A stretch of DNA of 64,000 bases, from assembly GCA_963734495.1 (NCBI GenBank), contig CAVTHK010000013.1, positions 320,001 through 384,000 on the forward strand, in the 5' to 3' direction. The position numbers and the translations under genes were made by a program. Positions 10,692-12,490 of this stretch are shown here, in pieces (position 1 is the first letter of the stretch; every line of letters starts with the position of its first letter). This stretch comes from an uncultured Spirochaetota bacterium. Lineage in GTDB: Bacteria > Spirochaetota > Spirochaetia > SZUA-6 > CAVTHK01. Under the pieces are notes generated by a model. That model made no database searches. It was given only the letters and a program-made list of their open reading frames with translations, and was not told the DNA's origin.

Positions 10692-12197
10692 TCAACGCCG
10701 CCGGCCGCGCGCCGGCGCGCGCTTTCCGGGCGGCCTTCGCGCGGGCCGTCGTTTCGGGGCGCGCGGCTTCTTCGGGGCTTTCCGGGGCGCCCGCTTCGGC
10801 GCTTTCTTCGGCTTCTTCTTCCTGGGCGCCTTTCTCGGCAGCCGCGGCTTCGGCGGGCTCGGTTTCTTCGGCGCCGGCGCAGGCTTCTCCGGAGCCTGGG
10901 CACTCAGCTTGAGCGCGGAGGCGTCGCGGCCGCGTCGACGACGCCGTAGCCGATGTCGAAGTCCCAGCCGTCGCCATCGATGTCGACAGCGCTGCGCTGC
11001 AGCACGGCCTTGAGCTGGTACGGCGTGAGGCCCGACGTGGGACGGCGCTGGCGCAGCGCCGTCACGACGCCGGCCGCGACGGGGCAGGCGGCGGAGGTCC
11101 CGCCGTCGACGGGGTAGACGTCGGAGCCGTCGAAGTGGCTGTAGGCCGCCACGTCGGGCTTGCGGCGCGCGAGCCCGCCGGGGCCCTGCGACGAATACCC
11201 GAGCCTGCGCCGGGTCACGGTCACCGCCGCGACGGTGATCACGTCGGGGTGCGAGTTGGCGCCGTGGATGCTCGCGCCGGGGCCCCGGTCGCCGACGCCG
11301 CAGCGGCCGTCGGGGCACTGCTCGCCGCAGTTGCCGGCCGCGAACAGCACGTCCGCGCCCGCGGCTACGAGGCTCCCGGTGATCTGGTTGAAGGGGTGGC
11401 TCCGGGTTGGCGCTGTAGTTTTCCGGAGACCCGATCGGAGCATCCTCGCTGCGGTCGAACATGCCCCAGCTGTTCGTGACCACCAGCGGGCCGGGCTCGC
11501 GACTGAGCAGGTCCATCAGGTCGGCGAACGCCCGTGATGGCGTCGGAGAGGAAGGCGGACCACGTGTCGCCCGTGGACTGCATCAGCGCGTAGTCGAGGA
11601 TGCGCGCGTCGGGGGCTGCGATCATCGCGTCGAAACGCGCACATCGTGCCGTGGTCCGGTCGCGCCGTGCCCGGCTTGTAGCCCTTGCGCGGCGACCAGC
11701 CTCGCCGCCACGGGGATGCGGCTGCCGTCGATGCCGGTGTCCATCACGGCCAGGCGCACGCCCTTGCCTGTGCAGCCGGCCCGCCGCAGCGCCTCTACGC
11801 CGAGGCGCGCGGCCACGTCGCCGGCGTCGCCGACCGCCTTGGACCCGCAGTAGACCGGCGCGAAGAGCTAGATGCGCGGGTCCGCGAAGACGCCGACGAC
11901 GTCGGCGCCGCGGTCGCGGCGCAGGCGGTCGATCGCGTCCTGGTCGGCGAGATCCGCGCGCACGGCGTACGTCGTGATCGGGCCGGAAGCGCCGTAGTCG
12001 AACCCCGAGGCGCTCACCGTCTGCGACGGCGCCCCGAGCCGCCCCAGCACCCGGACGGGGTGGAAGCCTTCGTCGAACTCCAGCCCCGCGACGCGGATCT
12101 CGCCCGCCAGCGACGCGCCCGCAGGGCCATAGCTGCGGCTCTCCCACGCGGCTACCAGCCAGTCGCGGCTGCGTATCAGAACGATCCTGCGTGCCAT
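10692..12197 (-). CDS. Subtilisin-like (S8) serine protease with N-terminal propeptide and probable Lys/Arg/Pro-rich tail; in-frame TAG at 11868-11870 and several frameshifts
   Basis: Catalytic motifs [42 protein letters not shown]; no signal peptide; SD GGGAGG before ATG 12197. Confidence 0.85.
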
Positions 12198-12232
12198 TCG
12201 CACCTCCCTGCGCGTTCCCTCCGCGCCGGGGC

Positions 12233-12490
12233 CTACGCGGTCGGCTCCTGGCGCGCATCGGTGAAGAACCTGATCCCGGGGAGCGCTTCCGCTTTCGCTT
12301 TCGCCTCGCGGCTGGCGGCTCCCCGCACGACGTAGCGGCCCAGCCCCGGATTCACGAGGATGGGGCCGTACCCCTCGTCAAGCTCGACGCCGGTCTCGGC
12401 CAGGAGCTCCTTGGCGCCGGGCATGTCGAGCTTTCGAGCGGGGGACTCGATCTGGATGAGAAATCGCATCGCGTGACGACGGCCACTCAT
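12233..12490 (-). CDS. Small protein (78-85 aa) similar to the propeptide of the downstream subtilase (I9-inhibitor-like)
   Basis: GVELDEGYGPILV...YVVRG...FFTDARQ aligns by eye with the protease prodomain [13 protein letters not shown]...YAVRA...VFADPRI. Confidence 0.7.
   Translation of the reverse strand: MSGRRHAMRFLIQIESPARKLDMPGAKELLAETGVELDEGYGPILVNPGLGRYVVRGAASREAKAKAEALPGIRFFTDARQEPTA

Follow-up and report, generated by a model that had tools for sequence, protein, structure and literature searches.

A free-standing gene for a small prodomain-like protein was found beside the gene for a subtilisin-like serine protease of the S8 family in a stretch of 64,000 nucleotides (nt), hereafter the window, from an uncultured Spirochaetota bacterium (GenBank assembly GCA_963734495.1, contig CAVTHK010000013.1, positions 320,001 to 384,000 of the forward strand). 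Our computational analysis indicates that the two genes form a conserved module, in which the small protein evidently arose from the protease's own N-terminal domain. The reading that we prefer, to which we assign a probability of roughly one half, is that the small protein inhibits the protease in trans by taking up the prodomain site on molecules of the enzyme that have lost their cis prodomain; the small gene, in other words, probably keeps the adjoining protease in check. The finding is solid at the level of the family, the function is our interpretation of it, and the protease copy in the window itself is broken.

The small gene is an intact open reading frame (ORF) of 85 amino acids (aa) on the minus strand (12233–12490), which starts with ATG at 12490, ends with TAG at 12235–12233, and was assigned as a free-standing prodomain-like gene without a Pfam family from its reading frame, its homologs, its predicted fold and its C-terminal tail. 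A spacer of 35 nt (12198–12232, minus strand), recognized by reading the sequence, separates its stop codon from the ATG of the protease gene at 12197 on the same strand, and an AGGGAGG ribosome-binding site precedes that ATG by 5 nt. An earlier note on this DNA, made from the sequence alone, had proposed an ORF of about 80 aa at 12233–12490, closely 5' of an S8 protease, and both its existence and its placement are borne out.

A word-indexed search returned 25 homologs of the small protein, 63 to 105 aa in length, the top one sharing 88% identity across 100% of the sequence. When a profile built from 100 members (alignment A2) was searched against 1.84 billion representatives, 775 representative clusters passed E ≤ 1e-3, of which 258 also passed E ≤ 1e-10; the best 150 of the 775 measure 64 to 176 aa, save for one frameshifted artefact of 299 aa. 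The small family matched no model in Pfam, NCBIfam or PADLOC, an Atlas search yielded only unnamed clusters (78–86 aa) and no named family, and a member on a Streptomyces akebiae plasmid carries the RefSeq label "hypothetical protein". By these sequence comparisons the small ORF is evidently a real gene that belongs to a large unannotated family. Two apparent fusions of the small domain to other sequence (P0167 and P0176) were rejected as frameshifted read-throughs. Five distant members (P0198, P0276, P0185, P0280 and P0175) have predicted hydrophobic N-terminal extensions resembling signal peptides or lipoprotein leaders, which may reflect either miscalled starts, there being internal Met codons just before the domain, or a secreted sub-branch.

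Conservation of the gene pair was examined by a scan of one genome per species, which gave 509 confirmed loci; the best 80 of these were analyzed. The small gene lay beside the protease gene in 75 of the 80 loci when an iterated profile was used (60 of 80 with the first-pass hidden Markov model, HMM), so that the adjacency seen in the window is strongly upheld across genomes. Four of the five loci without a small gene end at a contig edge (L012, L036, L046 and L053), and only L060 is flanked on both sides and still gave no hit. The loci span approximately 17 named phyla, including the archaeal Nitrososphaerota, Methanobacteriota and Nanobdellota. The arrangement within the 75 pairs varies: the small gene is upstream on the same strand in 38, immediately downstream and convergent in 23, downstream on the same strand in 13, and divergent in one, all 23 convergent pairs coming from Gemmatimonadota. 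Clustering of all flanking ORFs identified no third gene conserved beyond close relatives. Pairwise distances between small proteins track those between the partner catalytic domains (r = 0.94) and the partner N-domains (r = 0.93; 69 pairs), a correlation that establishes co-inheritance and no more. A second "small" hit in L045 proved to be the protease's own N-domain severed by a frameshift. In L062, from an Eremiobacterota genome, a separate 736-aa subtilase-like gene (3107–5317) lies directly upstream of the pair.

The relationship between the small protein and the N-terminal domain (N-domain) of the protease, which the earlier note had drawn from shared motifs, was weak in pairwise comparison but firm in comparison of profiles. 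BLASTP aligned only one short stretch (9/18 identical, E = 0.001), whereas hhalign aligned the small-family and N-domain-family profiles end to end over 75 columns with a probability of 97.4% and E = 1.2e-11, against E values of 0.15–0.74 for eleven controls (one reversed and 10 column-shuffled). The aligned columns include all three motifs named in the earlier note, the N-domain has two insertions relative to the small protein, and the most conserved motif common to both is G-x-x-[LF]-D-x-x-[YF]-x-P. An HMM seeded with small proteins alone recruited protease N-domains on iteration. When 74 small proteins and 71 N-domains were placed on one tree, the two groups parted with two label changes, compared with a mean of 48.6 after shuffling of labels (0 of 500 shuffles were as low). 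Four proteases (L012, L053, L069 and L040) were omitted from the tree and distance analyses, and the truncated small protein of L002 and a second partial hit in L069 were omitted from the alignments. The clean separation in the tree argues that the duplication predates the spread of the family and that both copies have been kept since; the small protein is, on this evidence, an ancient duplicate of the protease's own N-terminal domain.

Structure prediction related the N-domain, and more weakly the small protein, to subtilisin prodomains. The predicted topology of the small protein fits that of an I9-type prodomain (MEROPS), and a Foldseek search of the PDB with its model gave as the top match the subtilisin prosegment of a prosubtilisin complex (3cnq_P, E = 8.7e-3, template-modeling (TM) scores 0.58/0.67), with the prosegment 1spb_P (TM 0.64/0.75, the latter to the target) and pro-subtilisin E (3whi_B) also listed. 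For the protease, the intact 498-aa homolog P0026 was modeled with AlphaFold2 (alignment A3, 75 sequences), with a predicted local distance difference test score (pLDDT) of 85 and a predicted TM score (pTM) of 0.83. The model contains a disordered insert of about 20 residues in the N-domain (residues 54–72, pLDDT < 50) and a short strand (108–111) after the final N-domain strand. Its top PDB match was unautoprocessed pro-subtilisin E (3whi_B, E = 1.5e-18, 445 columns, TM to target 0.76); Pro-Tk-subtilisin and ProN-Tk-SP also ranked high, and mature subtilisins aligned over approximately 306–321 columns. Because the model aligns best with an unprocessed pro-subtilisin, the N-domain is predicted to lie at the position of a subtilisin prodomain, and it would be prodomain-like in both fold and position, docked as in zymogens. 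Among solved structures, subtilisin BPN' is the closest to the catalytic domain by sequence (E = 3.5e-11). The fold likeness to I9 proposed earlier was thus recovered clearly for the full-length protease, which matches pro-subtilisin E, and only weakly for the small protein, for which a prosegment ranked first at a modest E value with other ferredoxin-like folds scoring similarly.

The protease belongs to a large family, with at least 1647 proteins at E ≤ 1e-5 among 7999 candidates scored; the 120 best hits are 71–95% identical over the C-terminal 168 residues and carry names from Gemmatimonadota, Aminicenantales and Hyphomicrobiales. Peptidase_S8 (PF00082) matches P0026 with E = 3.9e-23 and all 75 aligned family members, and the catalytic residues D153, H182 and S367 together with the oxyanion residue N288 are invariant in 75/75 sequences, for which reason the family is expected to be active. 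No more than 18 residues precede the first strand in 118 of 120 homologous proteases, in agreement with the earlier claim that the protease has no signal peptide, or the domain in 153 of 174 small proteins. This leaves no room for a signal peptide in either protein, and we infer that both are cytoplasmic. All 75 proteases keep the cis N-domain; L062, which at first appeared to lack it, was rejected as an exception upon recognition of a divergent N-domain. Among loci L001–L080, the mean pairwise difference is 0.42 for the catalytic domain versus 0.67–0.68 for the N-domain and the small protein. Near-identical catalytic motifs are found from Gemmatimonadota through archaea. Conservation of the catalytic domain across phyla suggests strong constraint and, probably, horizontal spread. 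Cyanobacterial members of the family may correspond to PrcA, the calcium-dependent protease of Anabaena.

In the protease family, four Cys residues are invariant or nearly so, namely C117 in the linker between prodomain and catalytic domain, C289 directly after the oxyanion Asn288, C293 and C298, and the window copy includes the corresponding YCGS; a Cys cluster beside the active site of a cytoplasmic protein has the look of a redox switch or of a site for metal binding. The closest relatives (P0026–P0029) end in a Lys/Pro/Ala-rich tail of 40–70 residues that resembles histone H1 (that of P0028 scored against PF07382), while C-terminal ends elsewhere are mostly a short Lys/Arg run, replaced by a PPC domain in 14 of 75 and by CARDB in 2 of 75. 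This variable C-terminal module may set localization or the choice of substrate.

Both paralogs conserve an Asp that closes the last strand (D78 in the small protein, D106 in the protease), within a motif D-x-[RK]-[IQV]-x-P common to the two (D106-PRIEL in the N-domain). Seventy of 100 small proteins stop 5–9 residues past this Asp (mode 7, n = 40), and the small protein of the window, with the tail ARQEPTA, stops 7 residues past Asp78. In subtilisin BPN', the last residue of the prosegment is Tyr77, six residues after Asp71; by analogy, the tail of the small protein would be close in length to this segment. In the same prosegment, acidic Glu69 and Asp71 cap two helices (PMC6993865).

Subtilisin prodomains fold the enzyme and remain bound after cleavage with the C-terminal tail in the substrate groove, and free-standing prodomain mimics are potent inhibitors (PMC6993865). 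Stand-alone propeptide-like inhibitors (MEROPS I9) given there are yeast proteinase B inhibitor, Pleurotus POIA1, Arabidopsis SPI-1, Toxoplasma MIC5 and Plasmodium SUB1-ProM (PMC6993865). In the mechanism that we propose, the first gene encodes an S8 protease without a signal peptide, apparently made as a zymogen with a prodomain-like N-domain of about 110 residues, and the second encodes a free duplicate of that prodomain from which two loops have been removed and which typically ends 6–9 residues after the conserved Asp. The free small protein would bind the catalytic domain at the site of the cis prodomain, its short C-terminal tail would occupy the substrate cleft, and it would act as a safety catch, holding cytoplasmic protease molecules from which the cis prodomain has been cut off or displaced. 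Within this model we infer the binding, the inhibition, the autoprocessing of the cis prodomain and the existence of a physiological substrate.

Several observations weigh against this trans-inhibitor model. Since the cis prodomain is present in all 75 proteases, a second inhibitor is not obviously needed, and another role of the small protein is possible. The near-invariant Cys117 could, with C289, C293 and C298, tether the cis prodomain in place of its being cleaved. A tail of 10 or more residues after the Asp is found in 28 of 100 small proteins, so that a single product-mimic geometry does not suit some members. None of the Foldseek matches of the small protein reached E ≤ 1e-3, and RRM and other ferredoxin-like folds scored nearly as well as prosegments. 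The membership in I9 that had been expected did not appear at the sequence level: the Pfam I9 model (PF05922) at E ≤ 1 matched none of the 100 small proteins and none of the 72 N-domains, and at E ≤ 0.01 it matched none of the 75 full-length proteases. When profiles of the small and N-domain families were run against PDB sequences, the hits were likewise at chance level, with no prosegment among them. Finally, because the protease is disrupted in the window, no working switch is demonstrated at this particular locus.

It is also conceivable, although unlikely in our estimate, that the small protein is a trans-acting foldase, an intermolecular chaperone for folding or refolding of the protease and not a lasting inhibitor. 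The fold and linkage data serve this explanation as well as they serve the trans-inhibitor model; subtilisin prodomains double as foldases and inhibitors (PMC6993865), and an external chaperone encoded next to a subtilase is documented (PMC5638518). The distinction turns on the cis N-domain, which is predicted to be docked with high confidence and is retained throughout the 75 proteases, the one apparent exception (L062) having a divergent N-domain. Every protease keeping its own prodomain, a second foldase seems unneeded, and trans inhibition is favored on that account.

An improbable variant is that the small protein acts through the cis prodomain, by pairing with it or by competing for its docking surface, and would thereby be an activator or timer and not an inhibitor. 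Paralogs that share the same top motif could indeed recognize the same surface or each other, and the convergent layout of the 23 Gemmatimonadota loci permits independent expression of the two genes. The conserved C-terminal tail, near in length to that of a processed prosegment, is better explained by occupation of the cleft, and the known stand-alone prodomain-like proteins covered in PMC6993865 are all inhibitors. Likewise improbable is a role of the small protein as substrate or decoy, or an unrelated function such as nucleic acid binding through a ferredoxin/RRM-like fold with linkage reflecting co-regulation only: RRM/ferredoxin-like domains nearly match the prosegment scores in the fold search and many of the proteases have basic histone H1-like tails that might bind nucleic acid, but the small protein is homologous to the prodomain of the protease itself, the genes are almost always adjacent, in any of four orientations, in many phyla, and the small protein is co-inherited with the catalytic domain (r = 0.94), a combination that is difficult to account for unless its function is directly linked to the enzyme.

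The earlier note had further suggested that the pair might be an antitoxin-like switch in stress, defense or cell death, an idea for which we found no support in the variable gene orientation, the flanking genes or the phage records. As 23 of 75 pairs are convergent, the module is a misfit to a co-transcribed antitoxin-toxin operon. PADLOC gave only a weak generic subtilase hit for the protease (5.9e-5) and no match for the small protein, searches of phage and plasmid records gave 0 phage matches and 5 plasmid records only, and flanking-ORF clustering over the 80 loci revealed no defense or mobile genes conserved near the pair. The module does resemble type II toxin-antitoxin systems in comprising two genes whose small product would neutralize a potentially harmful enzyme by direct binding; unlike those systems, it has no fixed gene order or strand, its small protein has no DNA-binding domain, and there is no enrichment in phages or plasmids. 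A more far-reaching and quite unlikely possibility is a cytoplasmic protease latch, in which a subtilase doubly locked by its cis prodomain and by the free paralogous prodomain is unleashed for bulk or targeted proteolysis when the latch is lost or titrated, as a switch for regulated self-digestion, dormancy or abortive infection. Stress or infection could trigger such a latch, as could a change in redox state or in metal that is sensed by the Cys residues clustered around the oxyanion Asn. To our knowledge, a switch of this kind has not been described for subtilases in bacteria and archaea.

Comparison with characterized systems shows both likenesses and differences. As with the present pair, the gene of the stand-alone inhibitor SUB1-ProM adjoins subtilase genes and its tail has been proposed to lie in the active-site groove, whereas the stand-alone inhibitors listed above are all eukaryotic, several of them secretory or vacuolar, and perhaps convergent (PMC6993865). 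The present family differs from these in being prokaryotic, without a signal peptide, paralogous to the prodomain of its partner and outside Pfam I9, and inhibition by it is only putative. The cis propeptides of subtilisins BPN' and E and of Tk-subtilisin, which are intramolecular chaperones and temporary inhibitors, align structurally with the N-domain in the predicted zymogen arrangement and provide the best fold hits of the small protein, and the Asp closing the last strand is conserved, like Asp71 in BPN'. Those enzymes are secreted, however, and have the prosegment within the precursor only, whereas the present family adds a trans copy; the N-domain differs further in its disordered insert of about 20 residues and in a linker about four residues longer that bears the conserved Cys, and sequence similarity between those propeptides and the present domains is undetectable.

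Among bacterial subtilases, the Aeromonas sobria protease ASP also has a partner, ORF2, which is encoded by a neighboring gene and acts in trans, but ASP is secreted and propeptide-less, with ORF2 substituting for the propeptide (PMC5638518). The present protease, by comparison, keeps its prodomain, and both proteins of the pair are apparently cytoplasmic. The intracellular subtilisins (ISPs) of Bacillus pose a similar need for latency inside the cell, and a solved ISP (4zoq_I) is a weak sequence hit of P0026 (E = 9.2e-5), although the relationship to the present family is distant. Latency of the ISPs comes from a short extension at the N-terminus and not from a folded prodomain, and the known separate ISP inhibitor is not prodomain-like.

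The module therefore stands apart from these known systems in being prokaryotic, apparently cytoplasmic, duplicated from the prodomain of its partner while that cis prodomain is retained, and outside the I9 sequence family. Full-text literature searches, which did not cover most subscription journals, found no description of such a prokaryotic pair. With 509 loci and 775 clusters, the family would be a large prokaryotic counterpart of the handful of eukaryotic free-standing inhibitors, and the model would give a name and a testable function to an unannotated small-protein family. It would also offer a natural system for studying the action of a folded prodomain on one enzyme both in cis and in trans, as well as a handle on an unusually conserved cytoplasmic subtilase and its substrates.

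The protease gene of the window (10692–12197, minus strand) was mapped against P0026 by ungapped tblastn and by frameshift-aware alignment. The codons for 461 of 497 aligned residues are identical (93%), and the lesions relative to P0026 consist of one in-frame TAG, four 1-nt insertions and one 1-nt deletion; in a three-frame translation of the minus strand the protease sequence jumps between frames. The N-terminal prodomain-like domain (11871–12197, 109 codons), delimited by BLASTP, hhalign and the structural model, is open and carries the two insertions relative to its small paralog. The alignment to P0026 places the TAG (11868–11870), which corresponds to Glu110, exactly at the boundary between prodomain and catalytic domain. 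The S8 catalytic domain (10922–11867), defined by the same alignment and by Pfam, runs across three frames, with +1 insertions near 11702, 11635, 11532 and 11399. A basic, Lys/Pro/Ala-rich C-terminal tail (10692–10921), again placed by alignment to P0026, follows a 1-nt deletion near 10921 and ends with TGA at 10694–10692.

The full D/H/N/S set that had been claimed earlier for this protease is present as codons (Asp 11741–11739, His 11653–11651, oxyanion Asn 11332–11330 and Ser 11095–11093), but the implied single open frame is not, the claim having been made by reading through the TAG and five frameshifts. With the stop codon and the frameshifts, the four residues fall in three different frames. 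Peptidase_S8 (PF00082) matches only the longest piece (10907–11515; E = 2.9e-16, 60.1 bits against a cut-off of 21.8), and an NCBIfam scan of the catalytic piece gave only sub-threshold mycosin and dentilisin matches. As written, the protease gene of the window is not one continuous ORF and cannot make an enzyme.

Whether these breaks are sequencing or assembly errors in an organism whose module is intact, or mark a real pseudogene, is in our judgment about evenly balanced. Five of the six lesions are single-base insertions or deletions, three of the four insertions adjoin an identical base, and codon identity to P0026 is still 93%, all of which speak for errors. The window has a G+C content of approximately 70%, and the three next downstream genes on the same strand are also frame-split, namely those for a Cys/Met-metabolism pyridoxal phosphate enzyme, an Ala-racemase-N/D-Ser-dehydratase-like protein and a Gfo/Idh/MocA oxidoreductase, so that four consecutive broken genes, including the protease gene, span 6882–12197. 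A phase plot of G+C at third codon positions (GC3) showed blocks in which the phase switches at approximately 6882–12197, 15900–22100, 32100–37900, 39000–41100, 42800–44900 and 57800–64000, alternating with clean blocks of 3–4 kb such as 1261–5041, 26941–29971 and 45211–48721. The pattern is regional and not specific to the protease gene, and this, together with the prevalence of single-base lesions, suggests poor sequence.

On the side of a pseudogene, the TAG is the result of a substitution, and there are no breaks in the small gene or in the nearby genes for an aldo/keto reductase (12646–13680), a GntR regulator and a membrane protein of 490 aa. Both observations fit real decay equally well. 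Should the lesions be real, the open N-domain (12197–11871) would constitute a second free-standing prodomain ORF beside the 85-aa gene. The species-representative scan did not recover the genome of the window itself; the peptide patterns that it used coincide with a site that is broken or substituted there.

Elsewhere in the window, scans for tRNAs and for Rfam families found none, and a scan for promoters and terminators around the genes found nothing above shuffled sequence. A repeat scan detected a perfect 24-nt tandem repeat at 12558–12609 (2.2 copies of CCCGGCGAGTACGCCGGGCAGGTG), with a GC-rich palindrome in each unit. The repeat lies in the gap of 155 nt that separates the small gene from the aldo/keto reductase gene, and it could serve as an operator, form a terminator-like hairpin or belong to a class of repetitive extragenic elements.

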